64,000 nucleotides of DNA from an uncultured Dyadobacter sp. (GTDB taxonomy: Bacteria > Bacteroidota > Bacteroidia > Cytophagales > Spirosomataceae). Location: assembly GCA_965649915.1 (NCBI GenBank), contig CBFGMV010000026.1, positions 14,962 through 78,961 on the forward strand, written 5' to 3'. Below the pieces are notes generated by a model that did not search any database, was not told where the DNA came from, and saw nothing but the letters and a program-made list of their open reading frames with translations. This document shows positions 1,655-61,961 of this stretch, in pieces. Positions within the stretch are counted from its first letter, which is position 1. Each line of letters opens with the position of its first letter. Position numbers and translations under genes: made by a program.

Positions 1655-1656
1655 TC

Positions 1657-4062: not shown

Positions 4063-4095
4063 GGCGAAAAGAATTTCTTCCCAAAAAATAGAACT

Positions 4096-6510: not shown

Positions 6511-6561
6511 AGGGATGCCGCCCCAAAGGCCACATTACTTAATTGTCAAACTCTTACCACC

Positions 6562-8931: not shown

Positions 8932-8993
8932 TCAGGCTCGTCGCTTTCTTCCTTTTCATTCTTTCCTCCCCTTTAATTAATCTTTCGTTAAAG

Positions 8994-10553: not shown

Positions 10554-10583
10554 TGCGCAGGCAGGTAGTGATATCATGACGGT

Positions 10584-10690
10584 TGTCCAGCCGTGAACAG
10601 GATTGTTCATTTTCGGACGTTTTACATCCATTTCTCTTGTTTAAAAGGTTGATTATTAAACGATTGCTTTGCTTGGCATAACTTTATTGC
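10584..10690 (+). promoter_or_regulatory. Candidate sigma54-type promoter: paired palindromic activator sites + IHF-like site + -24 element
   Basis: TGTCCA-N4-TGAACA (10584-10599), TGTTCA-N4-CGGACG (10604-10619), WATCAANNNNTTR match on minus (10642-10654), TTGGCATAACTTTATTGC (10673-10690). The -12 GC is 2 nt off canonical spacing. Confidence 0.5.
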
Positions 10691-10767
10691 TGCAAGCGTA
10701 GGCAGTCATTGTCAGGGAGTTACCTTTTCTGACAATGGTTGTTTTAACCCTTTTCTGAACAAACAGG

Positions 10768-13167
10768 ATGCTGAAAAACTACCTTAAGGTTGCGCTTCGG
10801 AATATCTGGAAAAACAAGGTTTTTTCAGCGATCAATATTGTCGGCCTTGCCGTGAGCATGGCGGCCTGCATTGTGATCATGTTATTTGTTTTTTACGAGC
10901 GCAGTTTTGACAAGATCCATACCCGCAACATTTACCGGCTCGATGAGGTGCAGAAGTTCGAGGGCATGGTGGCACCCCAGAAAGTAGCGCTGTCCATGTT
11001 TCCGATGGGCCCGACATTGCGGGAGGAGTTTCCCGAGATCAGGCATTATGTTCGCATCAACACGGCCGGAAAGCTACCGATGAGTTACCGCGATCAGCGG
11101 ATAGAGCTCTCTCAGGTTTTCCTGACCGACTCGAATTTCTTCCAGCTTTTCGATTACAAACTGCTTGACGGTGATAAGGACAAGGTTTTGAAGGAGCCGA
11201 ACAGCGTGGTGCTTTCCAGGAAGAGCGCGGTGAACATATTCGGCAAGACGGATCCTATAGGTCAATACGTAAACCACTTCGGTAACGATACGCTGACCCT
11301 GAAAGTCACCGGCATCATGGACGATATTCCGGCTAATTCGCATTTGCAGTTTGACGCGCTGATTTCGTTCAACACCATCGCCAAGCCGGATTTTATGAAT
11401 AACTGGGGCGGTAACTGGCTCGTGACTTACCTGGAACTCGCCCCCGGGACGGATGTCGCGCGGTTGGAAAAGAAATTCCCTGCTTTCCTGAAAAAGCATA
11501 TGAAGGAGGGTGGCTGGAAGTTTTATGAACTGTTTTTGCAGCCGCTGGCGAACGTGCATGCACAGTCGGTGGACATTACCCACGATTATATCAACTATCA
11601 GAAGTTCGATAAAAGGTATACGTACATTTTTTCGGTGATTGCGGCCATTGTGCTCATTATCGCCTGTGTGAACTTCATGAACTTGTCTACCGCGCGTTCG
11701 ACCGGCAGGGCTAAGGAGGTGGGTATCAGGAAATCGATCGGTGCCCAGCGGTTCCAGCTTGCAGGGCAGTTTATCGGGGAGTCGGTGCTGCTGGCATTGT
11801 TCGCGTTGGTACTGGCGGTCGGTGTTGTGAAGCTCGTCATGCCTGCTGTGGCGGATTTTAGTCAGCGCCGGTTGGAATTTTCGATTTTTCAAAACCCGGG
11901 ACTCCTCCTGGTGATCCTGTTCGGCACAGTGTTGATCGGCATGTTTTCAGGGTTGTACCCAGCTGCATTTCTTTCGGGTTTTGAGCCGGTAAAAGTGCTG
12001 AAAGGCACGATACGGGCTGGAAAAAGCAACTTCCGGAATGCGCTGGTGATCGCCCAGTTTACCAGTGCGGTGTTCCTGATCATTGCCACCGGCTTTGCGG
12101 TAAAGCAGCTGCGTTATATGGTTAACAAAGACCCCGGTTTTGACAAAGAGCAGGTGGTGATCATTCCTTTGGATTCCAAGTCGGACACAAAGTTCGCAGC
12201 ATTGAAACAGGAGTTGCAGGCGAGTTCCTTCGTGGCGGCAGTAACTGGTTCGCAGCAGCGGCTCGGGAATAACCTGCACCAGACCGGCGTCACTTTTCAG
12301 GGGGCAGGCGCCAAGCGGCAGCTGACGTCGTCGCAGGTGATCGTGGATCCGGATTATCTGTCGCTTTACAAAATCAAACTGATCGCCGGCCGTAACTTCA
12401 CAAACAGCGCGTCCGACAATGCAAAAACCTACATTATCAATAAAGCGCTGGCGAAGGAGCTTCTGAAAGACGAACCGACGCTGACAATGGAAACGCTGAT
12501 CGGGAAACGATTTGGCTTTTCAGGCATGGATTCCCTGTCGACCATTGTAGGCATATCGGAAGACTTTAATTTCAATTCCCTGCATCATAAAATTGAGACC
12601 CTTTGCATTTTCAATCAGAAAGACTGGTCTTACTCCGAAATGTCGGTTCGGATCAAAGGGAAAAACACGCAGCAGGCGCTTGCGGCGATTCAGGCGGCCT
12701 GGAACAAGCTGGTGCCTGGCGAACCATTTAACTATTCATTCCTGGACGAACATTTCGCGGAGATGTACCGTGCCGATAGCCAGGTGAGTGAGATCGTAGG
12801 CGTACTGGCCGGTCTGGCCGTTTTTATATCCTGTCTCGGGCTGTTTGGCCTGGCTTCTTATTCCGCCGAGCGGAGGATCAAGGAGATCGGAGTGAGGAAA
12901 GTAATGGGTGCTTCGGTGGCTGGAATCGTGGCGCTGCTTTCCAGGGATTTTATCAGGCTGGTGATCATCGCGATACTCATTGCGTCGCCAGTTGCCTGGT
13001 GGGCTGTCCGGACCTGGCTGAACGATTTTGCTTACCGCATCGAGGTCGAATGGTGGATGTTCGCGGTGGCAGGTTTGCTGGCGATAGCGGTTGCTTTGTT
13101 CACGATCAGCTTCCAGAGTATCAAGGCTGCATTGACCAATCCTGTTAAAAGTTTGAGAGCCGAATAA
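10768..13167 (+). CDS. MacB/FtsX-type ABC permease, 799 aa
   Basis: MLKNYLKVALR start, ACVNFMNLSTARSTGRAKEVGIRK, NPVKSLRAE. Confidence 0.93.
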   Translation: MLKNYLKVALRNIWKNKVFSAINIVGLAVSMAACIVIMLFVFYERSFDKIHTRNIYRLDEVQKFEGMVAPQKVALSMFPMGPTLREEFPEIRHYVRINTAGKLPMSYRDQRIELSQVFLTDSNFFQLFDYKLLDGDKDKVLKEPNSVVLSRKSAVNIFGKTDPIGQYVNHFGNDTLTLKVTGIMDDIPANSHLQFDALISFNTIAKPDFMNNWGGNWLVTYLELAPGTDVARLEKKFPAFLKKHMKEGGWKFYELFLQPLANVHAQSVDITHDYINYQKFDKRYTYIFSVIAAIVLIIACVNFMNLSTARSTGRAKEVGIRKSIGAQRFQLAGQFIGESVLLALFALVLAVGVVKLVMPAVADFSQRRLEFSIFQNPGLLLVILFGTVLIGMFSGLYPAAFLSGFEPVKVLKGTIRAGKSNFRNALVIAQFTSAVFLIIATGFAVKQLRYMVNKDPGFDKEQVVIIPLDSKSDTKFAALKQELQASSFVAAVTGSQQRLGNNLHQTGVTFQGAGAKRQLTSSQVIVDPDYLSLYKIKLIAGRNFTNSASDNAKTYIINKALAKELLKDEPTLTMETLIGKRFGFSGMDSLSTIVGISEDFNFNSLHHKIETLCIFNQKDWSYSEMSVRIKGKNTQQALAAIQAAWNKLVPGEPFNYSFLDEHFAEMYRADSQVSEIVGVLAGLAVFISCLGLFGLASYSAERRIKEIGVRKVMGASVAGIVALLSRDFIRLVIIAILIASPVAWWAVRTWLNDFAYRIEVEWWMFAVAGLLAIAVALFTISFQSIKAALTNPVKSLRAE

Positions 13168-13177
13168 ATTCCAGACC

Positions 13178-15628
13178 ATGATCCAAAACTACTTTAAAAT
13201 TGCCCTGAGGAACCTGCAACGGCACAAGGGCTTTTCGCTGATTAATGTCTTAGGACTCACGATCGGGCTGACATGCTGTTTTCTGATCATGGTTTTTGTG
13301 CGGCATGAGCTGAGCTACGACACGTTCCACGCCAAACATGACCGCATTTACAGGCTGAATTACATGCCCAAGTTTGCGGGATACTCCATTTACATCGGAC
13401 TTACCCCAACGGTCGCATCGCCTCTGCTGCCCGACTACTTTTCCGAGGTCGAACGATCGGCGCGTGTTTACCGGAGCAATGCCACTATTGAGGTGCCGGG
13501 TACCAGCAGCCCCAGACCGGTTAAGTTTGACGAGGACCATTTTTTCTTCGCGGATTCGACATTGACTGATATTTTTTCGTTTGAATTCATTGAAGGAGAC
13601 CCGAAAACAGCATTGAAGCATGCCTATTCGCTGGTGATCAACGACCGCATCGCGCGCAAGTATTTCGGGAATGCGCCGGCGCTCGGCAAGACAGTTATTT
13701 ATGAAGGAACACATCCGATGAAGATAACCGGGGTTGTAAGGGAATTTCCGGACAACTCCCATATCCGGATCGATTTGTTGTCGGACTACAAGACGATGTT
13801 TGCCACCGAAAGCGAATTGGTCCGCAGAAACTTGCCCCAAAACTGGGTTATCACGCATTCGGCTACCTACGTGTTGCTACGGCCTGGAACAGACGCCCAA
13901 AGTGTGAACGCCCGGATGCCTCAATTTCTCAAAACGCATGCCGATGCGCAGATCGCGAAAGATATACAGTACCAGTTGCAGCCGTTGGGTGACATCCACC
14001 TGAATCCCGAAGTGGAGGGGAACCCTGAGCCGACGGGCAGCATGACGTACGTTTATGTATTTACCGGCATTGGTATTCTCACGTTGCTGATTGCCTGTAT
14101 CAACTTTATCAACCTTTCCACCGCCCGCTCGCTGCAACGCGCGCGGGAAGTGGGTATCAGAAAGACGCTGGGGAGTGAAAAAGGACAGATCGTTGCACAG
14201 TTCCTGGGCGAGTCGCTGCTGCTCAGCGGCATTGCATTGTTCTTTTCGGTTATACTCATCGCGGTGCTTTTCCCTGTGTTGAACATGCTGACCAACAAGC
14301 AGCTTACCTGGGTGTACCTGTTGCAAAATCCGGGACTACTCATTGCTTTTGTCTTGGTTGCTGTCATGGCGGGCCTTGTATCAGGCAGTTATCCCGCATT
14401 CTTTGTGGCTCGTTTTCAACCGATCGTGACGTTGAAAGGCAGCTTTGTGAGCGGTAAGGCAAGGGGAGGGAGCATCAGGCAGGCGTTGCTGGGTTTTCAG
14501 TTCATTGCTTCTATTGTATTGATTATCGGGGCTATGGTGGTGTTTCGGCAACTTCGGTTTTTAATGGAGCAGCCGGTTGGTTTCCATAAAGACTACATTA
14601 TTACAGCCGACATCCGGAATGAAAAGATCACCAATGTATTCGCTACACCCAGCGACAGTTCCTATCAGCGACTTAAAACCTTCCGGGAAACCTTATTGCA
14701 AAACCCGGCGGTGCAGGAAGTTACATTTGCTACCCAGCGCATGGCGGCGGGGGCCGTCCAACGGAATGTAGTTCCGGAGGGAAAAACGCAGGATGCCAAC
14801 CTCTTTGTAGGGGCGATCGGAATCGATTTTAATTTTGTGAAAACCTATGGCCTGAAACTGGCAGCGGGTCGAGACCTTTCTGAGCGCTATCCGACGGATA
14901 AGATTGCCGGCTTTCTCATCAACGAGACCGGCGTGAAGCAACTCGGGTGGAAGTCGGCGGCCGAAGCGTTGAACAAAGGCATTAATCTGGAAGGAAAGCA
15001 GGGGAGAATCGTCGGGGTGTTGAAGGATTTTCATACGCAGTCGCTACAAAATCCCATTCAAAGTGTGCTCTTCCACATAGATCAGAACCTTTTTACACAA
15101 ATGTCCGTGAAAGTGTCTCCAACGGCGCTCGATCAAACGCTGGCCTCGATGGGGCGCGAATGGGACAAGTTCTTTCCCGAAAAGGGCTTTGACTACCAGT
15201 TTCTGGACCAGAGCATTGCTGAGTCGTATGCTAATGAGCAACGGTTGAGTAAATTGGTTGGCTACTTCGCCGGTCTGGCCATCCTGATCTCCTGTCTTGG
15301 CCTTTATGGTTTGGTTTCGATCGCAACCCAGCAGCGAACGAAAGAGATTGGCATCCGGAAGGTGCTGGGTGCTTCGGTGCGAAGTATCGTGGAGCTCCTT
15401 TCCAAAGACTTCCTCATACTGGTCACCGTTTCGCTTCTGATCGCCAGTCCGATGGCCTGGTACGGCATGAACAAATGGTTGTCAAATTTTGCCTTTAAAA
15501 CCGATGTCGCCTGGTGGATTTTTGGCCTGGCAGGCTTGGTAACCCTCGGCATTACCCTGCTGACGGTTAGTTTTCAAAGTATCAGGGCAGCCTTGACAAA
15601 CCCGGTAAAGTCCCTGAAAACGGAGTAG
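13178..15628 (+). CDS. MacB/FtsX-type ABC permease, 816 aa
   Basis: MIQNYFKIALR start, ACINFINLSTARSLQRAREVGIRK, NPVKSLKTE. Confidence 0.93.
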   Translation: MIQNYFKIALRNLQRHKGFSLINVLGLTIGLTCCFLIMVFVRHELSYDTFHAKHDRIYRLNYMPKFAGYSIYIGLTPTVASPLLPDYFSEVERSARVYRSNATIEVPGTSSPRPVKFDEDHFFFADSTLTDIFSFEFIEGDPKTALKHAYSLVINDRIARKYFGNAPALGKTVIYEGTHPMKITGVVREFPDNSHIRIDLLSDYKTMFATESELVRRNLPQNWVITHSATYVLLRPGTDAQSVNARMPQFLKTHADAQIAKDIQYQLQPLGDIHLNPEVEGNPEPTGSMTYVYVFTGIGILTLLIACINFINLSTARSLQRAREVGIRKTLGSEKGQIVAQFLGESLLLSGIALFFSVILIAVLFPVLNMLTNKQLTWVYLLQNPGLLIAFVLVAVMAGLVSGSYPAFFVARFQPIVTLKGSFVSGKARGGSIRQALLGFQFIASIVLIIGAMVVFRQLRFLMEQPVGFHKDYIITADIRNEKITNVFATPSDSSYQRLKTFRETLLQNPAVQEVTFATQRMAAGAVQRNVVPEGKTQDANLFVGAIGIDFNFVKTYGLKLAAGRDLSERYPTDKIAGFLINETGVKQLGWKSAAEALNKGINLEGKQGRIVGVLKDFHTQSLQNPIQSVLFHIDQNLFTQMSVKVSPTALDQTLASMGREWDKFFPEKGFDYQFLDQSIAESYANEQRLSKLVGYFAGLAILISCLGLYGLVSIATQQRTKEIGIRKVLGASVRSIVELLSKDFLILVTVSLLIASPMAWYGMNKWLSNFAFKTDVAWWIFGLAGLVTLGITLLTVSFQSIRAALTNPVKSLKTE

Positions 15629-35257: not shown

Positions 35258-36322
35258 TCATTGCGGATCCAGGTAATAATCCAGGTTTTCCTTGGTAATA
35301 ATGTCGAGCGGGAGGAATTTGATATCAGGAATCTCCTTCTTGAAAATCAGGTGGTTGGCCAGCTGATGAATTCCCCAATAGCCCTGTCCCAATGGGTTCT
35401 GATTGATCAGAAAATCGATAACCCCTTTATTGAGATACTGCTGATTGTGCTCAATCAGGTCATATCCGACCAGTTTGATATCCGTTAATGCATTCTTTTC
35501 CAGGTAGGCTGCCACCTGAAATGCCTTGGAGTTGGTCACGTATACTGCCCCAAGGTCCGGATACTTCTCCCGTATCACATCAAGTTGTGCGTCGGGGCCT
35601 TCTTCTTCCGGGAAATTGATTTCCTGACTGATGACCTTGAATGTACCTTCCAGATTTTCTCCTTTGAAGTAATTCCGGAAGCCTTCTTCCTTGGTGATCA
35701 GGTGGGCAGAGTTCGAGATATCCTCATTGACATGTGCCACGAGCACCGTGCCGGGCTTATGTAGCCCGAAACGCAGTATTTTGGCCGCCAGCGACCCGCT
35801 CCGGTACGAATCCTGACCTATATAGCATAGCGGCGCTACGTGCTCGATCTGCGTGTTGAACAACACATAGGGAATGTTCAGATCAGCCCACTCTTTAAAA
35901 AATGGCAGTGCTTCCTTGTAAAAGATAGGGGCGATCAGCAGACCGTCGGGATGGTCGCGGCTGATTTCCTTTGCTTTGGCGATGAAGGACTGCTCTTCGT
36001 GCGAGTTGAAAATGAATTTCGTGACGTGGACCCCGTATTGCCTGAGTTCTTTTTCCGCTTTTTCGACCCCGTTATGTGGTGCTTCCCAATAGGAGTCGAG
36101 GTTTGGATCCGGGATAATCGCAGCAAGATTGAATGCACGTTGCGATTTGAGTGACTGGGCAATCAGGTTGGGCTCATAGTTCAATTCCTTGATAATGGCC
36201 AGGATCCGCTCCCGGACATCGTCGGCTACTCTTCCACGGTTATGTAAAACGCGGTCAACAGTCCCTTTGGAAGTCTGGGCCCTTTCTGCTATATCTTTAA
36301 TTCTGACGATTTTCTTTTTCAC
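35258..36322 (-). CDS. LacI-family transcriptional regulator, 354 aa
   Basis: RIKDIAERAQTSKGTVDRVLHNRGRV HTH, YEPN..A..L hinge, periplasmic-binding-type domain; GTG start. Confidence 0.93.
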   Translation of the reverse strand: MKKKIVRIKDIAERAQTSKGTVDRVLHNRGRVADDVRERILAIIKELNYEPNLIAQSLKSQRAFNLAAIIPDPNLDSYWEAPHNGVEKAEKELRQYGVHVTKFIFNSHEEQSFIAKAKEISRDHPDGLLIAPIFYKEALPFFKEWADLNIPYVLFNTQIEHVAPLCYIGQDSYRSGSLAAKILRFGLHKPGTVLVAHVNEDISNSAHLITKEEGFRNYFKGENLEGTFKVISQEINFPEEEGPDAQLDVIREKYPDLGAVYVTNSKAFQVAAYLEKNALTDIKLVGYDLIEHNQQYLNKGVIDFLINQNPLGQGYWGIHQLANHLIFKKEIPDIKFLPLDIITKENLDYYLDPQ

Positions 36323-36524
36323 ACGTAACTAATATTCAGGAGTATATTTCGGTATTAATTAACAAAACTAACAAGTAATTGTGAACATGGGTAATGGGTC
36401 GTGATCTAGCGAAAGTCGACTATTTAATACAAAATTTTTCAAATTTTTTTTATAATAAATTTGAGATTGTGACGGTGAGGCCTTAGTTTTACCTGGCCAA
36501 AAATAACTAGTTGTTATTACTGAC

Positions 36525-36567
36525 GTGTACGAGCCCGGCCGGTGTTTTAGAGTGCGTGTTCGAACAC
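36525..36567. promoter_or_regulatory. Candidate LacI operators
   Basis: Perfect 12-bp palindrome GTGTTCGAACAC (36556-36567) with central CG, and degenerate GTGTACGAGCCC (36525-36536), in the region divergent from lacI. Confidence 0.6.
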
Positions 36568-36616
36568 TTTTTTAAATTTTGCTAGGAAAAACCAATTTGG
36601 CAAGTAATTTTGTAAA

Positions 36617-36742
36617 TAAGATAAGAAAGAAAATTTTATTCTTTAATACTCCTAACCTTTAACCTTTTCAGGAATTCATTTATTGAAATTCCTCTAATCC
36701 TAAACCTGCAAAGCGCGCGAACATCGTTTCGTGCGCTTTTTT
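36617..36742 (+). ncRNA. Candidate small RNA (5' end uncertain, ~36497 or ~36617)
   Basis: Two + strand Bacteroidota-type promoters, no ATG ORF, internal hairpin AGGAATT/AATTCCT, and a terminator whose U6 tail is on the + strand. Confidence 0.4.
36710..36742 (+). terminator. Intrinsic terminator, stronger on +
   Basis: AAAGCGCGCGAA-CATCGT-TTCGTGCGCTTT with T6 on + and only T3 on -. Confidence 0.75.
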
Positions 36743-36747
36743 GCTTA

Positions 36748-37803
36748 TCACGGCAGCATGAAATCCACTACCACATGGTCGCTGTCCACATAGGACGAGC
36801 AGGTCAGTATCCATCCTTCGGCCAGGTCGCGGTCGGTCAGCACTTCATTGACGCTCATATGTATACCCCCGGTTTTGCAGATCGCGGCACATGTTGAGCA
36901 CCGCCCGCCTTTGCAGCTGTAAGGCAATTGGATACCATTGGCCAGGGCAGCGTCCAGAATAGTCGAATGCGCCGGTACGTGCAGATCATAGGCCGACGCC
37001 CGGAAATGGAGTTTGATATCGTGCGGGAAGGAATCCGGGGGCGGTGGCGGTGGTGAAATAATGACGAAATTCTCCTTCCGGATCTGTGCAGTTTGAAAAC
37101 CCATGAAATGCAAGGTGATTTCGGCCGACCGCATCAGATCAAACGGCCCGCAAATGTAAAAGCGTGCTTCGGACTGGTTGAATCGCAGTGATTGCCCGAC
37201 GAGCTGTTCCAGTCGGGTATTGTTGATCCTGCCCCTGATCCCGTTCCATTCGTCGGAGGGCTGGCTGTGAATGTGAATTACCCGTAGCCGCTCCGGATAG
37301 CGCGACTGCCAATGGATAATCTGCGTCCAGAAAAGGGTGTTCCGTACATTGCGGCTGGCATATATCAGCGTAACCTGTGCGCCGGGCTCGTGGGTCAATG
37401 CGTCTTTCATGATGGCAAACAGGGGCGTGATCCCGCTGCCGGCGCCAATCAGCACGATATCGCGCGGCAGGTTGTCCGGGGCCGTTTCCAGTGTGAACCG
37501 GCCCGACGGCGCAAGTGCCTTAAAGGTCGCTCCGACCTGCACGGTATCGATCCAGAAGCGGGATATTTCGCCGTTTGCCACACGCTTGACAGTGATGGAA
37601 GGGAATGGATCGACTCCCGGGGCTGAGCTCATAGAATAGGACCGCCGTACCTCATGTCCGTGCATTTCAATCAGAAAGGTCAGGAACTGCCCGGCCTTGT
37701 AGCGGAATGGCTCGTTTGGCGCCGTTTCAAAAACAAATGTTTTGGTGTCGTCGCTTTCCCGGATGATCTCCCTGACACGCAGTTGGATGGTGTTGTCGGT
37801 CAT
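36748..37803 (-). CDS. FAD/NAD(P)-binding reductase with C-terminal 2Fe-2S ferredoxin (PaaE/KshB-like), 351 aa
   Basis: GQF, RRSYS, GAGSGITP, YICGP, and CKGGRCSTC...LTC. Confidence 0.92.
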   Translation of the reverse strand: MTDNTIQLRVREIIRESDDTKTFVFETAPNEPFRYKAGQFLTFLIEMHGHEVRRSYSMSSAPGVDPFPSITVKRVANGEISRFWIDTVQVGATFKALAPSGRFTLETAPDNLPRDIVLIGAGSGITPLFAIMKDALTHEPGAQVTLIYASRNVRNTLFWTQIIHWQSRYPERLRVIHIHSQPSDEWNGIRGRINNTRLEQLVGQSLRFNQSEARFYICGPFDLMRSAEITLHFMGFQTAQIRKENFVIISPPPPPPDSFPHDIKLHFRASAYDLHVPAHSTILDAALANGIQLPYSCKGGRCSTCAAICKTGGIHMSVNEVLTDRDLAEGWILTCSSYVDSDHVVVDFMLP

Positions 37804-38888
37804 GTGTGTTGGTTTTGTTCTATCGACAATGCTTCATACTCCGCCAGTAATGTCCAGCAATGCGCTTCACAGGTCCAGTGCATGTGAAAGAGCGGATGGT
37901 GCGAAAGCCTGTAAAGCAATGGGTTTTCGTAAGCCGTAAGCAAGCCGGCAATAAAAAAGTAGAAACCTTTGAAATCCTGGTTCGTAAAGTCTTCCACCGG
38001 AATGCGGGTGGTCTCAACGCCAAGCCTGATCAGCGAAGTAGACAGAATGACCCGGTCCATCCGGTGCTGTGTAGCGGAAAGCAGCATTAAGGTGTCCTCA
38101 ATCAGCTTTTTACGGATGGCCTGTAATGGGGGCGGGTTAAATGCGGCGATTAGTCTGGCGACGTGGTAAATGATCAATGGCGTGCGGGGGTACTGGTGTG
38201 CGCACCGGAAAGGGGCGTCCAGATACCGCCCGGTTTCGATCACGGATCGGATATAGGCCAGGGTGGCATCGTCGTGGTGGTTCCAGGGTAATTTGTAATG
38301 CAGAATGCAGTACATGATATTGCTGAGGACGCTCACATCAAATTCGATGTACATGTTTTTCCCAAACCAGGTCGAATAGGCTTTAAGCGACCGGTATTCC
38401 GGATAAGTGTTCCTGATCCATTGCTTGCTGCCGTTCGCATGGAGCGCCAGTTTTTCTTTCAGCCACAAAAGCTCTTCACGTGTAGGCGTGGTCGTCAGGT
38501 AAGCGAAGGCCGTGTCGTCGATGTCGTCCGGAATCCGGAAATGTTCCAGGTGCCTGAAAATGTAACCGTTGGAGAAATGCATCGACGGCCTGGTTTTCCA
38601 GAAGTTGTAGGTCTTGAGTCCATCTTTGTTTTGAAATTCTGAGAAATTGGCGGTGATGCCGTCGCAGACCTGGTTAATGAGCCTACGGGTTTCCTCATCG
38701 CAATACTTGTGAATGGATCGCAAGGTGAATCCGATAATGGCGGAGAAGAACATTGTCGTGTCATCACGCCGGTAACCGATTATTTCGTTGGTCCGTTGCG
38801 CAGGGAACAGTCCTTTGGGAAATATTGCGTTGCCCGGTGACTGTAAAGCACCGATCCGGTCGATAAACTCCTGCAACGTTTGCTTCAT
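37800..38888 (-). CDS. Stand-alone class II terpene cyclase / prenyltransferase beta-domain-like protein, 362 aa
   Basis: PDDIDDTA (DxDDTA), QW-like QNKDGLKTYNFW, DVSVLSNIM and Y...YPRTPLIIYHVARL segments; the stop overlaps the reductase ATG (ATGA). Confidence 0.6.
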   Translation of the reverse strand: MKQTLQEFIDRIGALQSPGNAIFPKGLFPAQRTNEIIGYRRDDTTMFFSAIIGFTLRSIHKYCDEETRRLINQVCDGITANFSEFQNKDGLKTYNFWKTRPSMHFSNGYIFRHLEHFRIPDDIDDTAFAYLTTTPTREELLWLKEKLALHANGSKQWIRNTYPEYRSLKAYSTWFGKNMYIEFDVSVLSNIMYCILHYKLPWNHHDDATLAYIRSVIETGRYLDAPFRCAHQYPRTPLIIYHVARLIAAFNPPPLQAIRKKLIEDTLMLLSATQHRMDRVILSTSLIRLGVETTRIPVEDFTNQDFKGFYFFIAGLLTAYENPLLYRLSHHPLFHMHWTCEAHCWTLLAEYEALSIEQNQHT

Positions 38889-39709: not shown

Positions 39710-39988
39710 TTATGCTTCCGCAGCAACTTCAACCGCGATCGGTTCGATGTGAACGTAAGATCTGTTTTCACGGGTCTTACGGAACACTACGTTACCATCA
39801 ACCAATGCGAACAATGTATGGTCACGGCCGATTCCTACGTTTTTGCCTGGGTTATGCTTGGTTCCACGCTGACGAACCAGGATATTTCCCGCTTTTGCCA
39901 ACTGGCCACCGAATAATTTCACACCAAGACGCTTGCTTTCCGATTCACGTCCGTTTTTCGAGCTACCTACACCTTTCTTATGTGCCAT
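39710..39988 (-). CDS. rpmA: 50S ribosomal protein L27
   Basis: [37 protein letters not shown]. Confidence 0.98.
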
Positions 39989-40048
39989 GATATCTTATAC
40001 TTAAATTGTAATTTCCTGATTAAACTGAATTAGGCTTCCGCCATTGCA

Positions 40049-40360
40049 TTAGGCAACGATCTCGTCGATGCTGATTTTAGTCAGATACTGACGGTGACCA
40101 TTCTTCACGCGGTATCCTTTGCGTCTCTTCTTTTTGAAGACGATCACTTTCTCACCTTTAAGGTGTTCAAGAACAGTTGCTTTAACAGAAGCACCTGCTA
40201 CTGTCGGAAGACCTACCTGTACTGTGCCTCCGTTGTCAACGAGAAGGACTTTGTCAAATACAAGTGCAGCGTTCACGTCACCTTCAAGCCTATGCGTGAA
40301 GATTTCGCGACCCTTTTCAACTTTAAATTGCTGACCTGCGATTTCTACGATTGCGTACAT
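40049..40360 (-). CDS. rplU: 50S ribosomal protein L21
   Basis: [31 protein letters not shown]. Confidence 0.98.
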
Positions 40361-53895: not shown

Positions 53896-56304
53896 CTATT
53901 CTGAGCGGAGTGCCAGCACGGGATCGATGGCGGCAGCCCGCAGCCCCTGCATGAATACCGTGACCATTGCGATCACGATCGAAGCGCCGCCCGACACCGC
54001 GGATATCCACCACGCCACACCGGCGTGATAGGCGAAATTTTCGAGCCATTTCTGCATCAGGTAATGTCCGGCAGGCAAAGCAATGAGTATGGAGATTGCT
54101 ATGATTTTGATAAATGTCCTGGAAAAAAGGAGAGCGATTTCCGGGCCCGAAGCACCGAGCGCAATGCGGATCCCTGTCTCCCGACGTCGTTGCGCTACGG
54201 CCAGGTGTGCCAGTCCGAACAACCCCAGGCCGCATATGATTATGGCGATCACCGTCACCAGCGTGATCATATGCTGCCATCGCTGTTCCATTGCGTAGGC
54301 CCGGGCATTGCTGTCGCTCAGAAAAGCGTAGTTGAAAACTGCATTGGGAAGAAGCTTTTTAAATGTTGCTTCCAGTTTTTGAATGGTTTGCTGCTGGTCT
54401 TTTTGAGCGATTTTGATCCATAAAGCACCTCCATCGTAATGCGTGCTCATCGGCATCACCATGGGGCCGATCCGCTCCTTTAATGAGCTGTAATGGAAAT
54501 CGTCGACCACACCAACGATGGTAAAACCCTCTTTGCCAAAATAGGAGTCCGGGAAAAGGGTGGCGCCGACCGGATTCTTCAAACCTGCCTTTTTAACAAA
54601 TGCTTCATTTACCAAAACGCCCGATTTGCTATCAGACCCAAACTGCGATGAAAAATTCCGGCCGGAACTAAATTTCATTTCCAACATAGGCGCATACAAA
54701 GCATCAATGGTGCGCATGAAACTCATGAATTTCCGACCATTGATTTCGACATCCCGGTTCCCAAATTCACCCGCCAGTGAAATGGCCCGGATCGCCGGTT
54801 CGTAGGCAAGCTCATGCCTGAACCGCGCCGTAATATGCTGTACATTACGCACACCCTGGATATCGATTTTTACGACCTGATCGGGGTTGTAACCCAGACT
54901 TTTGGAACGGATGAAATGCATTTGCCTGTAAAAAACCAGGCTGGCGGTACCCAGCAGGATAGCTGTTGCAAACTGGACGATCATCAGGATCTTGCCGACC
55001 GGGTTCCGTGAGGATATGCTTATTTTCTGATACAACGTAGCCACGGGAGTCAGCCTGGAAAGCAGCCAGGCGGGATAAAAAGCCGCGCAGAGCATGTTAA
55101 TGAGGAAAATTCCCGCAAGCCATGCTAGTAACACCGGCGTAAAAAGCAGGGAGCTGGGTATCTCTTTTTGAGCTAATTGATTGAAAGCGGGAAGCAGGGA
55201 CCAGGCGATGAGGATAGCGAGCAGCATAGCCGCAGCCACAACAATGGCAGATTCACCCATAAACTGAGCGATGATCCCGGCGCGCCCTCCTCCCGTCGCT
55301 TTCCGTATGCCCACCTCCTTCGCCCGTTTCACGGACGAAGCGATCGTCAGGTTGATAAAGTTAGTGCTTGCCATCAGCAGGATAAAGGAAGCAATGCCGA
55401 GAAAAATGTAGGAATACACGGAACGGCTCCCATTGACAATACCCGATTCACCGTTCTGGTTGGCTATTTCCTGGGGATTAAAGTGAATGTCGGTCATGCT
55501 TTGTAACCCATAAGTAATGGGGGAGGCCTCCGGGTTTTCTTTGCGTTGCGTTTGTGAAAGGGAAAACGCGATGCGGTTGAGTTTAATAATGATTTCGTCC
55601 GGTCGGGCATCAGGGCGAAGCACCAGAAAGGTTCCGAGATAGGCATTCAGCCAGCTCGTATCGTCAAATGAAACCTTCATGAATTCGAAGGGAAATAATA
55701 TGTCAAACTGGATGGACGAATGGGATGGAGGATCTTCCGCCACACCAGCGATGACTAATGGCTTGCCGATGCGCATAGCGGAGGGATCTGCATCCATTTC
55801 CAGGATTTCGCCTGTGACGTCCGTGCGGCCGAAGAATTTAAGCGCTGTTTTCCGCGTAATTATTACCGAATTGACGTTTTGCAAAGCGGTTCGGGGATTG
55901 CCTTCCACCAGCGGGAATGTGAAAACATCCAGAAAGGAGCTATCGACGAACAGCAATTGCAGCTTGAATGCATTATGCCCGTGACGCACGTCCCCGAAAA
56001 TTTCCCCGCCCATTACGCGTGTATAATGCATGATCCCCGGTACCTGCGCCTGAAATGCAGGGCCTTGCACTTGTCCGGTGCCGCCGGTGGTCACCATCTG
56101 GCCATGGTCCCGGTAGGTGCTGGTGATGCGATACAGGTTCGGGTTGTTTTGGTGAAAATGGTCAAAACGCTGTTCGTCGGTGATATATAGGGCTGCAAAA
56201 AGGACGCAGCAGGTACCGGTGGTCAGCCCGGTAATATTAATAAGGGCGTACAGCCTCGTTTGCCAGAGCTGACGTCCGGCAACTTTCAGAAAAGTTTTAA
56301 ACAT
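53896..56304 (-). CDS. MacB/FtsX-type ABC permease, 802 aa (divergent)
   Basis: MFKTFLKVAGR, NFINL..KRAKEVGIRK, QRRRETGIRIALGAS, DPVLALRSE. Confidence 0.9.
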   Translation of the reverse strand: MFKTFLKVAGRQLWQTRLYALINITGLTTGTCCVLFAALYITDEQRFDHFHQNNPNLYRITSTYRDHGQMVTTGGTGQVQGPAFQAQVPGIMHYTRVMGGEIFGDVRHGHNAFKLQLLFVDSSFLDVFTFPLVEGNPRTALQNVNSVIITRKTALKFFGRTDVTGEILEMDADPSAMRIGKPLVIAGVAEDPPSHSSIQFDILFPFEFMKVSFDDTSWLNAYLGTFLVLRPDARPDEIIIKLNRIAFSLSQTQRKENPEASPITYGLQSMTDIHFNPQEIANQNGESGIVNGSRSVYSYIFLGIASFILLMASTNFINLTIASSVKRAKEVGIRKATGGGRAGIIAQFMGESAIVVAAAMLLAILIAWSLLPAFNQLAQKEIPSSLLFTPVLLAWLAGIFLINMLCAAFYPAWLLSRLTPVATLYQKISISSRNPVGKILMIVQFATAILLGTASLVFYRQMHFIRSKSLGYNPDQVVKIDIQGVRNVQHITARFRHELAYEPAIRAISLAGEFGNRDVEINGRKFMSFMRTIDALYAPMLEMKFSSGRNFSSQFGSDSKSGVLVNEAFVKKAGLKNPVGATLFPDSYFGKEGFTIVGVVDDFHYSSLKERIGPMVMPMSTHYDGGALWIKIAQKDQQQTIQKLEATFKKLLPNAVFNYAFLSDSNARAYAMEQRWQHMITLVTVIAIIICGLGLFGLAHLAVAQRRRETGIRIALGASGPEIALLFSRTFIKIIAISILIALPAGHYLMQKWLENFAYHAGVAWWISAVSGGASIVIAMVTVFMQGLRAAAIDPVLALRSE

Positions 56305-59555: not shown

Positions 59556-61961
59556 TCATTCACTCCGCAAACTCTTCACAGGATTCGTCATCGCCGCCTT
59601 TAACGTTTGCAGCCACACCAGCGCGGTGAGCATTACGCTGAACAGGGCCGCGATTCCTACAAAAAGGCCCCAGCCCAGATCCATTCGGTAAGCATAGGTA
59701 CTCAACCAGTTTTTTCCCAACACAACAGCTACGGGGAATGCAATGCCGGCAGCGACGAGCATGATGGCCAGAAATTCTTTCAGGAAGATCAGCATGACGT
59801 GGAGGCCGGTTGCGCCAAGTACTTTGCGGATGCCTATTTCCCGCGTGCGCCGGGAGACATTGAGCGATACCAATCCAAGGATACCCAGCAGCACGATCAC
59901 GATCGACAATGCAGTGGCCACCTGGGATGCTTTCTTGAGACGTACTTCGGATTCGTAGAGTTTTTGAAGCGTGTCATCCATGAAATTGTATTCAAAAGGC
60001 GCGTCGGGCATGAGTTCCTGCCATTTGGTTCCGATCGCCGACATCGCCTGGCTGAGGTCTGAACGGTGGAGCCTGATAGACAGATAACGGTATGAGTTCG
60101 CACCGCGCACATCCACGAACGCCAGGGGTTTGATAGTCTGGTGCATGGATTCAAAATGGAAATTCTGCGTAACACCCGCGATCGTCCATACGCCGGGAAG
60201 CGTCTCTACTCTGATTTGCTGCCCTACGGCTTCCGGCACGCTGGTGTATCCCAATGCCTTGACGGCTGCCTCGTTGAGCACTATCCGGTTGGGCTGATAG
60301 GCCGTGTTTTTCTCCTGAAGAAAAAGCCCGCCCAGCATTCTGATTCCGTACGTCCGAGCATAGTCCGCGTCGGTGCCGAGGAAGAGCGTATGAATGGCGT
60401 GGGTCGAATCCTGGCCGGAGCGGTACACACCGAAGTGTCCTCCATTATTCCCATTTGGTATCTCGTAGGAGAGACTGATGCTGCTGATTTCGGTCATGCG
60501 GGCCAGCTCGTCCCGGATACCTTCCATTTTAGTGAGCCCCGCCGGTGTCCAGTCGCGAGGAACGGCTACGGTTACGAGTGATTCTTTTTGATAACCCAGA
60601 TTTTTGTTGAAGAAATAACTCACCTGCCGGGATACGATGGCGGCCCCGGCAAACACTAACAATGCGATCACAAATTGCACCGTAATCAGCACACGCCGGA
60701 AAACCACACTGGCTTTGACGGATTTTAACTTCCCTTTCATCGATTCCACCGACGGAATGCCGGACAGTACAAATGCGGGATAAATACCTGCGAGCAAACC
60801 GATCAAGAAGGCAATGATCGGCGGGATCACGAAAGAGTAAGGCGGCAATGCAAACAGTGAACGAACCGGCTTTCCAAAAATACCCGCAAAAAGCGGGCGG
60901 CATAGCTCGTAGAAGCCCAGAGCGAGTACCATCGCGAAGAAGGCAAGCAGGATCGCTTCTGCCAAAAACTGCCCCACCAGCTGGCTTTTCAGGCTGCCGA
61001 GCACTTTTCTGACCCCGATTTCTTTAAGCCGCGACGCCGAACTTCCAATGGTGATGTTTACAAAGTTGACGATAGCCATCACCAGAATAAACAGGGTAAT
61101 GCCCGAAAGCGTCAGGATCATCTTTCTGACGATACCATTGTTGGCTTCGCGGTAATAGGTGTCGAGCGGGGTAAGGTAAACTTCCAGATTGGCGCGAATA
61201 CCTGCGGGCGCATGGGTGTTCAATTCCTGTTTGATGGCTTTTTCGAGTTCGTGGGGCGATACACCGTCCCGAAGTTCGAGGTAGCTGACCATGTAAGGAA
61301 AATTCCAGTTGTCCTCCGACCCTTTCCGGCCTTCCAGGCTGCTGAATGGAATGAAGATCTCTGCCTGGCTGGATAGCAGATGGGTGACAGAATTGTCCGG
61401 AAGTGTTTTCAGTACCGCTGTGACCTGAAACTCCTGTTTGCCTCCCACAAAATTATGCAGCGTTAACGACTCGCCGATGACGTCGGTTTTACCAAAATAC
61501 TTGATCGCTTTTTCCTCAGTGATGGCTATGGCATCTGGTGTGCTCAATGCGAAGCGGGCGCTGCCGTGCAGCAATGGAAATCCGTACATGCCCAGCAGTG
61601 AAGCGTCGCCGACCTGGACGTCCTCCCGAAAATGCTTATCACCTTTTGAAACCGCCACGGTAATTGCATCGTAGCGGTAGTAGCCGGCCACCAGGTTAGG
61701 ATAATCTGCCTTTAATGTTTTGGCCAACGGTCCGAGGGTTGCCATATCGACGCCCATATCCGGGTTTGTCCATTTGCTTCGGAGGATATACTGGTTGCCG
61801 GCGTTGCGGAGTTCCGCATTGACCCTCAGCTCGCTCCACACATAGGCCATCATGAGAAACGAGAATGTCATTCCGACTGCCAGGCCCAGGATGGTTACCA
61901 ATGCATAAAAGCGGCGTTTAAGCAGATGGCGCCAGGCAATTTTGAAGTAGTTTTTCAGCAT
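59556..61961 (-). CDS. MacB/FtsX-type ABC permease, 801 aa
   Basis: MLKNYFKIAWR, AIVNFVNI..RLKEIGVRK, RRTREIGIRKVLGA, NPVKSLRSE. Confidence 0.93.
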   Translation of the reverse strand: MLKNYFKIAWRHLLKRRFYALVTILGLAVGMTFSFLMMAYVWSELRVNAELRNAGNQYILRSKWTNPDMGVDMATLGPLAKTLKADYPNLVAGYYRYDAITVAVSKGDKHFREDVQVGDASLLGMYGFPLLHGSARFALSTPDAIAITEEKAIKYFGKTDVIGESLTLHNFVGGKQEFQVTAVLKTLPDNSVTHLLSSQAEIFIPFSSLEGRKGSEDNWNFPYMVSYLELRDGVSPHELEKAIKQELNTHAPAGIRANLEVYLTPLDTYYREANNGIVRKMILTLSGITLFILVMAIVNFVNITIGSSASRLKEIGVRKVLGSLKSQLVGQFLAEAILLAFFAMVLALGFYELCRPLFAGIFGKPVRSLFALPPYSFVIPPIIAFLIGLLAGIYPAFVLSGIPSVESMKGKLKSVKASVVFRRVLITVQFVIALLVFAGAAIVSRQVSYFFNKNLGYQKESLVTVAVPRDWTPAGLTKMEGIRDELARMTEISSISLSYEIPNGNNGGHFGVYRSGQDSTHAIHTLFLGTDADYARTYGIRMLGGLFLQEKNTAYQPNRIVLNEAAVKALGYTSVPEAVGQQIRVETLPGVWTIAGVTQNFHFESMHQTIKPLAFVDVRGANSYRYLSIRLHRSDLSQAMSAIGTKWQELMPDAPFEYNFMDDTLQKLYESEVRLKKASQVATALSIVIVLLGILGLVSLNVSRRTREIGIRKVLGATGLHVMLIFLKEFLAIMLVAAGIAFPVAVVLGKNWLSTYAYRMDLGWGLFVGIAALFSVMLTALVWLQTLKAAMTNPVKSLRSE

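Follow-up and report, generated by a model that had tools for sequence, protein, structure and literature searches.

A gene-less susC-susD transcription unit beside lacI in Dyadobacter and its predicted non-coding RNA

Between a lacI-family repressor gene and a convergent reductase gene, genomes of the soil bacterium Dyadobacter harbour a short cassette that appears to be an orphaned susC-susD transcription unit, emptied of both structural genes and probably still yielding a functional non-coding RNA under LacI control. By alignment, the cassette brings together the two ends of the operon: its operators, promoter (P2) and 5' leader come first, and immediately after them the 3' trailer and terminator found behind susD in relatives. 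Over about thirty species it has changed very little. The cassette was studied in a 64 kb stretch of Dyadobacter DNA (the window, meaning that entire stretch), in which a previous sequence-only reading had proposed a carbon-responsive small RNA. The best reading of the present comparisons is likewise a non-coding RNA controlled by LacI and belonging to a new family, but one composed of a susC 5' leader fused to a susD 3' trailer instead of an independent sRNA.

Layout of the locus and its regulatory signals

The gene order lacI - unit - reductase - 362-aa protein - nfu is preserved across Dyadobacter. An open reading frame (ORF) search of the window's slot between lacI and the reductase gene (Table 1) found no adjacent SusC (TonB-dependent) and SusD genes, nor any credible ORF on either strand within 36330-36745, and ATG is absent from 36613-36746. 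A small-protein reading was rejected, the slot's only ORFs of at least 20 aa showing no conservation; for instance, a 27-aa ORF with a TTG start (36579-36662) has lost its start codon in locus L006 and has a shifted stop in L014. The promoters, operator-like sites, C-rich motifs, hairpin and terminator listed by the sequence-only reading were all found in place.

Table 1. Features of the lacI-reductase intergenic region and its flanking genes, in window positions.
Feature	Position	Strand	Sequence	Remarks
lacI-family repressor gene	35258..36322	-		354 aa; Pfam LacI HTH and Peripla_BP_4
Unit slot	36323-36747			Between lacI (-) and convergent reductase (-) in the Dyadobacter window
Candidate -7 box of lacI's own promoter	36363..36370	-	TAGTTTTG	Read from the letters
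P1-like motif	36460..36491	+	TTTG-N20-TAGTTTTA	TTTG 36460-63, TAGTTTTA 36484-91; upstream of O1 and O2
Operator O1	36525..36536		GTGTACGAGCCC	Degenerate in this genome
Operator O2	36556..36567		GTGTTCGAACAC	Perfect palindrome
Promoter P2	36578..36612	+	TTTG-N23-TAATTTTG	Possible -33 TTTG 36578-81, -7 box TAATTTTG 36605-12
Predicted non-coding transcript	36619..36745	+		~125 nt; start inferred, end is the terminator T-tract
Block A	36629..36641	+	GAAAATTTTATTC	Leader element common to real susC leaders
Block B	36651..36669	+	CCTAACCTTTAACCTTTTC	C-rich, predicted single-stranded
Central hairpin	36670..36693	+	AGGAATTCA / TGAAATTCCT	From the minimum-free-energy structure; flanked by blocks B and C
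Block C	36693..36706	+	TCTAATCCTAAACC	C-rich, predicted single-stranded
Intrinsic terminator	36710..36745	+		12-bp stem 36710-39, then T6; called on + strand only
Reductase gene (FAD/NAD/2Fe-2S)	36748..37803	-		Pfam FAD_binding_6, NAD_binding_1, Fer2; convergent neighbour, outside unit

By its Pfam domains, an HTH of PF00356 (E = 9e-15) and a sugar domain of PF13407 (E = 6e-40), the repressor is a true LacI-family member. The CAAAnCTA motif of a candidate -7 box that may serve lacI itself is kept in the alignment of relatives, and lies about 160 bp from O1. The two operators, both CG-centred, have centres 31 bp apart, a spacing identical in L028 and Adhaeribacter swui, and both sit upstream of P2 without overlapping it. 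O1 is intact (GTGTACGAACAC) in several other Dyadobacter. GTGTTCGAACAC, the sequence of O2, occurs once in the 64 kb window, where 0.06 chance matches to the degenerate operator pattern are expected, and O2 is 94-100% conserved in most relatives. The motif is seen at most Dyadobacter loci, beside the orthologous lacI of Adhaeribacter and Mucilaginibacter, and ahead of susC in L028, L032, L082, L081, L204, L205 and Mucilaginibacter. This distribution bears out the operator-like sites proposed earlier, and supports O1 and O2 as genuine conserved operators of LacI orthologues. The effector, judged by the outgroup regulons (GH20, GH109, CBM9 and APH/NTP-transferase), may be an N-acetyl-hexosamine-type compound; approaching the LacI regulon through CBM9 homologues gave no Dyadobacter-named match among the best 120.

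Bacteroidota sigma-A promoters typically comprise a -7 TAnnTTTG box and a -33 TTTG/TTG about 19-21 nt upstream. At 23 nt, the -33/-7 spacing of P2 lies beyond this textbook value, and TTTG-N17-23-TAnnTTTG patterns are no rarer in the window than chance predicts (two found against 1.8 expected). P2 is nonetheless credible because its -7 core, TAATTTT, is invariant in all alignable Dyadobacter units and also before real susC genes, and stands at a fixed 43-47 nt from the O2 centre in both settings, which supports its being the promoter that drives susC in relatives. P1 is 80-86% conserved in the closest species and recognisable as TAGCTTTC in the susCD-bearing L082 and L032; the final base of its -7 box deviates from the TAnnTTTG consensus, and the motif is missing from the relocated susC copy described below and from Adhaeribacter.

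Descent from a susC-susD operon

In three clade-C Dyadobacter (L028, L082 and L032), and likewise in Adhaeribacter and Pontibacter, the slot holds susC-susD preceded by these operators and this -7 box, in keeping with the sequence-only description of the region as the slot of a sugar operon. That reading had also held that a sugar operon here in relatives would speak against its proposed sRNA, and this is exactly what relatives carry, susC-susD being present in Dyadobacter, Adhaeribacter and Pontibacter. Among the outgroups, A. swui and Pontibacter sp. have orthologous, 62-64% identical susCD running divergently from lacI, and in A. swui the operator pair keeps both its 31-bp spacing and its distance to the -7 box. 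Mucilaginibacter has the order lacI - operator - CBM9 - operator - susC - susD. SusC divergence follows LacI divergence, as vertical descent predicts, and comparison across these genera indicates that the adjacency of lacI and susCD is the ancestral arrangement.

Pairwise and multiple alignments match the window's leader to the susC leader, and its block C and terminator to the susD trailer. Block A aligns with GAATTTATTCTAC in the leaders of relocated susC genes (L204-L206) and with AAGAATAATATTCC in L028, and block B aligns with CTCTTTAACCAATTT, 17 nt ahead of the L205 susC start codon. Block C matches the CTAT(T)CCTAAAA(A)CCC motif preceding the post-susD terminator of L028 and L082, as well as ATCCTAAA directly ahead of the susC ATG in L032, and the terminator stem GCGTACGAAG is common to the susD trailers of L028 and L082. 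By alignment, therefore, the C-rich motifs formerly taken as the sRNA's own are leader and trailer sequence. The outgroup susD trailers that were read showed neither block B nor block C.

Species of the window's subclade have an 80-82% identical susCD at a different locus, preceded by copies of one operator, the -7 box and the leader, and followed by a different terminator. Its SusC belongs to cluster P0002, comprising the proteins of D. beijingensis, D. soli, sp. MSC1_007, sp. CY261 and sp. 676; this orthologue overturns the idea that susCD was simply lost everywhere. As the relocated copy is found in sister species, we infer that it is present in the window's genome too. The database holds just two close SusC clusters, the next match being 64% identical, and no closer orthologue (above 64% identity) was found for other Dyadobacter subclades. 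A neighbour-joining (NJ) tree places the susCD-less clade B outside a group of clade C and the main clade (92% bootstrap), a placement that requires either parallel loss or an older duplication. The coding part would have been lost from the original site, a likely route being deletion between copies of a short direct repeat, (A/T)TCCTAAA, of which one immediately precedes the susC start codon and another lies in the susD trailer.

Conservation of the transcribed sequence and its possible roles

By the measure of its neighbouring gene, the unit is under strong purifying selection. The LacI protein retains 89-92% amino acid identity to its closest Dyadobacter orthologues, and the four-fold sites of lacI are nonetheless saturated (33-45% identity); as the transcribed part of the unit is 91-100% identical in the 15 closest species, it does not appear to be decaying, contradicting the fallback suggestion that it represents a leftover promoter. 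In the same 15 species, identity is 96-100% for the leader, 87-100% for block B, 81-93% for block C and 78-95% for the hairpin. Where LacI is 89-91% identical, orphan units show 91-96% identity, whereas the susC leader and trailer of L028 and L082, compared at equal LacI identity, show just 71-75%. The transcribed sequence thus outconserves both neutral sites and the same untranslated regions of intact operons, which makes it probable that the RNA itself has been retained for a function. Between subclades, the parts that persist are blocks A-C and the terminator only; block B remains 75-87% conserved across most of the main clade, and the TCCTAAA core of block C is invariant or nearly so across 26 sequences. 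The element is dispensable in some lineages, having been lost fully in L029, L034 and L054 and partly in L016 and L018 despite the retention of lacI in all five.

A covariance search, proposed earlier as a check, gave matches within the genus only. The model scores 88 bits at the window's unit and gives a weak match (25 bits, E = 0.12) to the L082 trailer, which lay outside the training set; it detects a single copy per Dyadobacter locus, with none elsewhere in the 1.07 Mb searched and none at any non-Dyadobacter locus therein. The window holds no further copies of the unit's motifs. Matches listed from a metagenome scan with the 17-mer TAACCTTTAACCTTTTC were mostly chance, the only true locus among them being L144, in the same lacI/reductase context. 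No family of Rfam 15, which includes MicC and Bacteroides sRNAs, reached its gathering threshold anywhere in the window; the best match to the unit at E <= 10, MicC (21.8 bits against a threshold of 90, E = 5), was rejected as terminator-driven noise.

A 132-nt version of the RNA folds at z = -4.15 relative to shuffles. The sole element of the RNAalifold consensus is the terminator, in which six of 10 pairs have compensatory changes, preserving the pairing of the stem despite its sequence being just 45-56% identical. Its T-tract points along the + strand in all species and, together with its homology to the post-susD terminator of L028 and L082, this supports the earlier assignment of the terminator to the + strand unit and not to the reductase. 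By contrast, the hairpin between the C-rich motifs was rejected as a conserved RNA structure: it is lineage-specific, being preserved in the window's subclade and, with compensatory changes (AAAATTC/GAATTTT), in L015, and is weak or absent elsewhere. The C-rich motifs themselves are conserved and predicted to be unpaired, as had been suggested, with mean unpaired probabilities of 0.80 for block B and 0.81 for block C, as against 0.52 for the whole RNA (29 distinct sequences); on these folding predictions, both blocks have the character of a conserved, accessible seed region. The predicted transcript is also depleted in G, with 6% G versus 18% C on the + strand in the window and means of 7.8% G and 20.3% C in all 31 units, non-homologous inserts included. 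The GC skew of the window's other intergenic regions ranges from -0.27 to +0.27.

The unit would work as follows. With LacI on O2 (and O1), at a centre ~57 nt ahead of the start site, P2 would be held off; the cognate sugar would free LacI, allowing P2 to transcribe a ~125-nt RNA ending at the intrinsic terminator. The likely working surface is the pair of accessible C-rich, leader-derived blocks, which might act through pairing with mRNAs or through binding a protein or RNA that recognises the susC leader. Target prediction, which the sequence-only reading had envisaged for the C-rich motifs, gave duplexes at the level of shuffles among the 59 translation-initiation regions of the window (best -28.2 kcal/mol, shuffles -27.3 +/- 2.6). 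A more specific version, which we consider doubtful, is that the RNA is a 'leader mimic': it would repeat the susC 5' leader in the sense orientation, be co-induced through LacI with the relocated susCD, and titrate a trans-acting repressor of SusC translation, either an RRM-type RNA-binding protein or an sRNA like FopS. What began as the scar of a relocated operon would then have been turned into a feed-forward decoy in glycan uptake.

The intergenic segment is present in metatranscriptome assemblies (Logan contigs, unstranded and of low depth), in RNA runs that were selected because they contain the window's sequence. Several of these contigs start upstream of P2 (about 36464-36520) and several cross the terminator into the reductase gene; with ends that do not regularly coincide with P2 or the terminator, they do not show a discrete 125-nt RNA. 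The crossing of the terminator fits a different explanation, in which the unit is a scar with roles at the DNA level only: the operators titrate LacI or autoregulate lacI, the hairpin serves the reductase as terminator or insulator, and the RNA is a by-product. The demonstrable origin of the unit as a susCD remnant, the rank of O2 among its best-conserved parts genus-wide and its dispensability in several lineages all agree with such a scar. Operators alone, however, leave unexplained the invariant -7 box, the 96-100% conserved leader, and the maintenance downstream of a promoter of conserved unpaired blocks and of + strand G-depletion through sequence turnover. Also counting against such a scar are the homology of the hairpin to the susD terminator, its T-tract facing + in every species, and the distance of about 160 bp between O1 and the candidate -7 box of lacI. 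We therefore regard purely DNA-level roles as unlikely.

Action in cis seems improbable. Here, LacI-controlled transcription from P1/P2 would run into or past the shared hairpin and modulate the reductase operon by interference or as antisense RNA, and the C-rich, G-poor tract would be a rut-like Rho-loading site limiting read-through. Rut sites are classically C>G-skewed, unstructured RNA, which the composition of the unit fits, and the two transcription units converge on a single hairpin in this genome, which some RNA contigs, strand unassigned, span into the reductase 3' end. However, the sequence-specific conservation of blocks B and C exceeds what composition alone would need, both blocks are also seen in susC leaders and trailers lying in no convergent arrangement with the reductase, and the terminator, with its 12-bp stem and T6, is strong. 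Finally, that the small unit is ancestral, an old sRNA gene beside lacI into which susC-susD was inserted later in clade C, would suit the NJ rooting (B,(C,main)), with clade B, the earliest to branch, and the main clade both lacking susCD here, but is highly implausible given the orthologous susCD divergent from lacI in Adhaeribacter and Pontibacter (with the same operator pair in A. swui), the parallel divergence of SusC and LacI, the presence of leader blocks A and B ahead of relocated susC, the lack of blocks B and C in the outgroup susD trailers read, and a covariance model that matches none of the non-Dyadobacter loci searched.

Comparison with known systems

Knowledge of regulatory RNAs in the Cytophagales is very scant, and the literature searched contained no Dyadobacter sRNA. 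The locus provides a concrete sRNA candidate, with a nameable regulator (LacI), operator, promoter and terminator and an origin readable from the sequence. Should the orphan RNA have a function, it would cleanly illustrate how an operon scar can give rise to a regulatory RNA, and glycan uptake would be under RNA-level control outside gut Bacteroides as well. Otherwise, the locus is a useful warning that a regulator's 'divergent transcript' may be a fossil, with the real target of LacI elsewhere on the chromosome.

Within the same phylum, Bacteroidota, the GibS and FopS sRNAs of Bacteroides thetaiotaomicron are tied to polysaccharide utilisation loci and susC translation-initiation regions, GibS being sugar-responsive (PMC11697453). 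FopS forms a multicopy family that pairs with susC leaders (PMC11697453), whereas the window's element is single-copy per locus in the DNA searched and its RNA would itself read as susC leader in the sense direction. Neither sequence nor covariance-model similarity links them to the window's putative RNA (no Rfam match to them at E <= 10), for which an RbpB-type partner or target would be hypothetical.

G-rich Shine-Dalgarno regions are largely absent from Bacteroidota mRNAs. It is with such regions that the C-rich motifs of RsaI pair in Staphylococcus aureus, where this sRNA is repressed by the LacI-family regulator CcpA and carries these motifs unpaired (bioRxiv 10.1101/278127). LacI-family, sugar-responsive control and unpaired C-rich motifs are likewise predicted for the window's RNA, but RsaI comes from an unrelated phylum, is unrelated in sequence and is not an operon remnant.

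In the chbBC-ChiX 'trap' of Salmonella and E. coli, a target mimic, an RNA co-induced with sugar uptake carries a copy of a regulator's site, providing a working model for a susC leader mimic that titrates a regulator. There, the decoy lies within a translated operon mRNA and its partner, ChiX, is known, whereas a decoy in the window is purely inferential. The LacI-controlled susC-susD operons of relatives differ in carrying both structural genes, neither of which stands at the window's site, but the unit shares with them, by homology, its operators, promoter, leader, trailer and terminator.

The lacI-reductase intergenic region

The gap between the LacI-family gene and the convergent reductase gene contains neither an ATG codon nor a credible ORF, as judged by an ORF search. 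The sequence-only reading had listed here two + strand promoters, operator palindromes, C-rich motifs, a hairpin and a terminator, with no + strand gene, and all were found where it had placed them. The predicted 132 nt RNA folds better than 200 out of 200 shuffled sequences (z = -4.15) and matches no Rfam family; the top sub-threshold match, MicC (21.8 bits against a threshold of 90), rests on the terminator.

Features of the gap, its flanking genes and the genes used as expression yardsticks (window positions)
Feature	Position	Strand	Remarks
LacI-family gene	35258-36322	-	LacI HTH and Peripla_BP_4
Intergenic gap	36323-36747		425 bp; flanked by lacI and the convergent reductase gene
Promoter motif P1	36460-91	+	TTTG-N20-TAGTTTTA
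Operator O1	36525-36		GTGTACGAGCCC; degenerate second site
Operator O2	36556-67		GTGTTCGAACAC; perfect palindrome, single occurrence in the 64 kb window
Promoter motif P2	36578-612	+	TTTG-N23-TAATTTTG
C-rich stretches	36651-69 and 36693-706	+	either side of the hairpin
Terminator		+	12 bp stem and T6; called on this strand only
FAD/NAD/2Fe-2S reductase gene	36748-37803	-	convergent neighbour of the gap
rpmA (L27)	39710-39988	-	recognised by translation; yardstick
rplU (L21)	40049-40360	-	recognised by translation; yardstick

The start of the reductase gene overlaps by 4 nt the stop of the gene for a 362 aa protein (37800-38888, - strand), which adjoins the reductase in all Dyadobacter loci, has no Pfam or NCBIfam match and may be its oxygenase or desaturase partner. 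Elsewhere in the window (1537-15628, 53896-56304 and 59556-61961) is a series of seven ORFs of ~790-840 aa, including a + strand tandem run of five, that resemble a family of paralogues.

susCD operons of relatives and the origin of the unit

In three relatives, Dyadobacter sp. CY312 (L028), a MAG (L032) and a JGI contig (L082), susC (1030 aa) and susD (498 aa) lie between lacI and the reductase gene, divergent from lacI. The earlier proposal of an sRNA in the slot of a sugar operon was right as to the slot, but relatives do carry the operon there. Upstream of these susC genes are two operators spaced 31 bp, then a -7 box (TAATTTTA in L028 and L082) and a short G-poor leader. On the 3' side of susD in L028 and L082, CTAT(T)CCTAAAA(A)CCC is followed by a hairpin, GGCGTACGAAG...CTTCGTGCGCC, and a T-run; in the window's unit this trailer is represented by conserved block C and the terminator. 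A second hairpin in L028 (878-940), GTAGGTGTTGGC...GCCAACACCTAC, separates the susD terminator from the stop codon of the reductase gene and has its T-run on the strand of that gene; the two convergent units there therefore have separate terminators, whereas the window has one.

Adhaeribacter swui and one Pontibacter also have lacI divergent from orthologous susCD (SusC 62-64% identical). The former shares the 31 bp operator pair of Dyadobacter, ~46 nt upstream of a TATATTTG box, and Mucilaginibacter has the arrangement lacI - operator - CBM9 gene - operator - susC - susD. That susCD accompanies lacI in these three genera and in Dyadobacter clade C indicates that the lacI-susCD module is ancestral, and the window's cassette is that operon minus its genes. 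The lacI-susC gaps of Adhaeribacter and Pontibacter are unusually long, at 825-874 bp (L081 6128-7000; L083 6176-7000), and the A. swui leader, which extends ~340 nt past its operators and -7 box, could contain additional regulatory RNA structure. Around the orthologous lacI of Hymenobacteraceae are NTP-transferase, APH-type kinase (AmgK/MurU-like by domain), CBM9 and GH109-like genes (L081 398-4735 and 12277-13965; L083 316-4558; L036 7452-11712), as well as GH20 genes in Adhaeribacter loci. Because of this neighbourhood, and an operator motif upstream of the NTP-transferase operon in L036, the LacI regulon is suggested to handle N-acetyl-hexosamine or MurNAc-type glycans.

In the protein collection searched, close SusC orthologues fall in only two clusters: the lacI-adjacent copies, and the 37 members of P0002, 80-82% identical to them. 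P0002 includes proteins of D. beijingensis, D. soli, sp. MSC1_007, sp. CY261 and sp. 676, the same species in which the gene-less, or orphan, unit adjoins lacI. In D. beijingensis and MSC1_007, susCD is found elsewhere, in the order 2OG-oxygenase - 147 aa gene - susC - susD - 179 aa gene - M4 peptidase, and so appears to have been relocated, rather than simply lost, in the window's subclade. The relocated D. beijingensis susC is preceded by one operator, GTGCTCGAACAC, a -7 box, TAATTTTG, ~44 nt downstream and a leader of ~55 nt containing GAATTTATTCTAC and CTCTTTAACCAATTT; behind its susD is a different terminator, block C not being present. Since a nine-way alignment matches orphan units, relocated leaders and lacI-adjacent leaders position for position across O2, the -7 box and blocks A and B, and the relocated susD lacks block C, the orphan is a paralogous operator, promoter and leader copy attached to the original trailer. 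A short repeat, (A/T)TCCTAAA, directly precedes the susC ATG in L032 and recurs in the susD trailer of L028 and L082, and deletion between such repeats would be a plausible route to the leader-trailer junction. Such an origin for a non-coding unit is unusual, and readable from the sequence.

The relocated susC leader opens with a perfect 14 nt palindrome, GTTAGAATTCTAAC, in L205 (7944-7957) and L204 (~434-447), and its counterpart in L206, GCTGGAATTCTGGC, could still form a stem with G-U pairs; the palindrome would be a hairpin at the 5' end of the RNA or else a second site for protein binding. GAATTC is also found within the orphan's central hairpin.

Other main-clade subclades and clade B, which is susCD-less at lacI, keep lacI and the orphan despite the protein collection containing no SusC orthologue of theirs >64% identical; the only match labelled sp. 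CY323, for example, is 47-48% identical. In a bootstrapped NJ tree of LacI and the M1 peptidase, 92% of replicates gave (clade B,(susCD clade C, main clade)). The history thus requires that the genes were lost in parallel or, alternatively, that an older duplication was followed by differential loss.

Conservation and constraint

The window's LacI is 89-92% identical to its orthologues in D. beijingensis, D. soli, D. fermentans and others, and the order M1 peptidase - lacI - gap - reductase - 362 aa protein - nfu is common to ~35 Dyadobacter loci. The lacI gene is saturated at its four-fold degenerate sites, where identity to even the closest species is 33-45%. Across the 15 closest species, by comparison, identity is 96-100% directly 3' of the -7 box (36613-45), 94-100% in O2, 83-100% in P2, 87-100% in block B, 78-95% in the hairpin and 81-93% in block C, a level of conservation far above the neutral rate. 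The terminator is only 45-56% identical, yet its stem is maintained: RNAalifold retains 10 pairs, six with compensatory changes. In more distant Dyadobacter, what persists is block A (GAAWATTATTC), block B (CCTTTAACCTTTTC), block C (CTAATCCTAAATCC) and the terminator, with spacers and central hairpin remodelled. By a covariance model spanning block B through the terminator, 33 Dyadobacter loci and the window (88 bits) have a single copy each, and no further copy was found in the 1.07 Mb searched. L029, L034 and L054, with gaps of 148-180 bp, lack the element altogether, and L016 and L018 have truncated forms.

From the -7 box to block C, the + strand is G-poor in all 31 alignable units (mean G 7.8% vs C 20.3%), including inserted segments non-homologous between subclades; the GC skew of the window's other intergenic regions lies between -0.27 and +0.27. 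In 29 distinct sequences, the mean predicted probability of being unpaired is 0.80 for block B and 0.81 for block C, vs 0.52 for the whole RNA. We take these as signs of constraint on the + strand RNA, and infer that selection acts on it and not on the DNA. At LacI identities of 89-91%, orphan units are 91-96% identical, whereas the leader and trailer of the intact operons in L028 and L082 are only 71-75% identical at equal LacI divergence. The scar is thus under more constraint than its source UTRs, pointing to a sequence-specific function that was either kept or gained anew; that it is a scar at the DNA level only is unlikely.

Transcription, putative function and known systems

Several metatranscriptomes from soil, rhizosphere and roots, and some runs guessed to be RNA, have Logan contigs over ~36464-36746, often with the flanking genes uncovered. 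Depth over the unit is 2-6, vs 28-40 at rpmA/rplU (39710-40360), the peak for the region in RNA runs. Many contigs begin upstream of P2, the limits of one nearly coincide with the predicted start from P1 and the end of the terminator, and several cross the terminator into the reductase gene. These contigs, unstranded, of low depth and from runs picked because they contain the unit's sequence, hint that the region is transcribed, but demonstrate neither the strand nor a discrete 125 nt RNA.

The homology, conservation, operator and promoter architecture and terminator covariation of the unit are evident from the comparisons. It is a real, conserved non-coding unit of a family outside Rfam, probably transcribed and with a putative function. 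LacI would bind O2, and O1 where intact, centred ~57 nt upstream of the P2 start, an operator-to-promoter position kept in front of real susC genes and recalling GalR at the upstream gal operator. The cognate sugar would release LacI, allowing P2 to fire, and transcription would stop at the intrinsic terminator, yielding a G-poor, largely unstructured RNA of ~125 nt, with transcript ends as predicted, bearing two accessible leader-derived blocks. On balance we favour the view that the orphaned ends of susCD still make a functional LacI-controlled RNA. Interference in cis with the convergent reductase operon, or Rho loading against it, is quite improbable, and an ancestral sRNA gene into which susCD inserted, rather than an ancestral susCD operon, is very improbable indeed.

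Leader mimicry by a co-induced RNA has a precedent in the chbBC-ChiX trap; that the orphan RNA mimics the susC leader in this way, titrating a repressor of SusC synthesis, is a doubtful possibility. Closest in architecture and theme to the favoured LacI-controlled RNA are the GibS/FopS sRNAs of Bacteroides, which have a single-stranded conserved 5' part and a terminator and act on susC initiation regions (PMC11697453). The orphan has no sequence or model similarity to them and, in contrast, is a sense copy of a susC leader and not the complement of one. For control of a C-rich sRNA by a LacI-family repressor, RsaI of S. aureus provides a precedent (bioRxiv 10.1101/278127).
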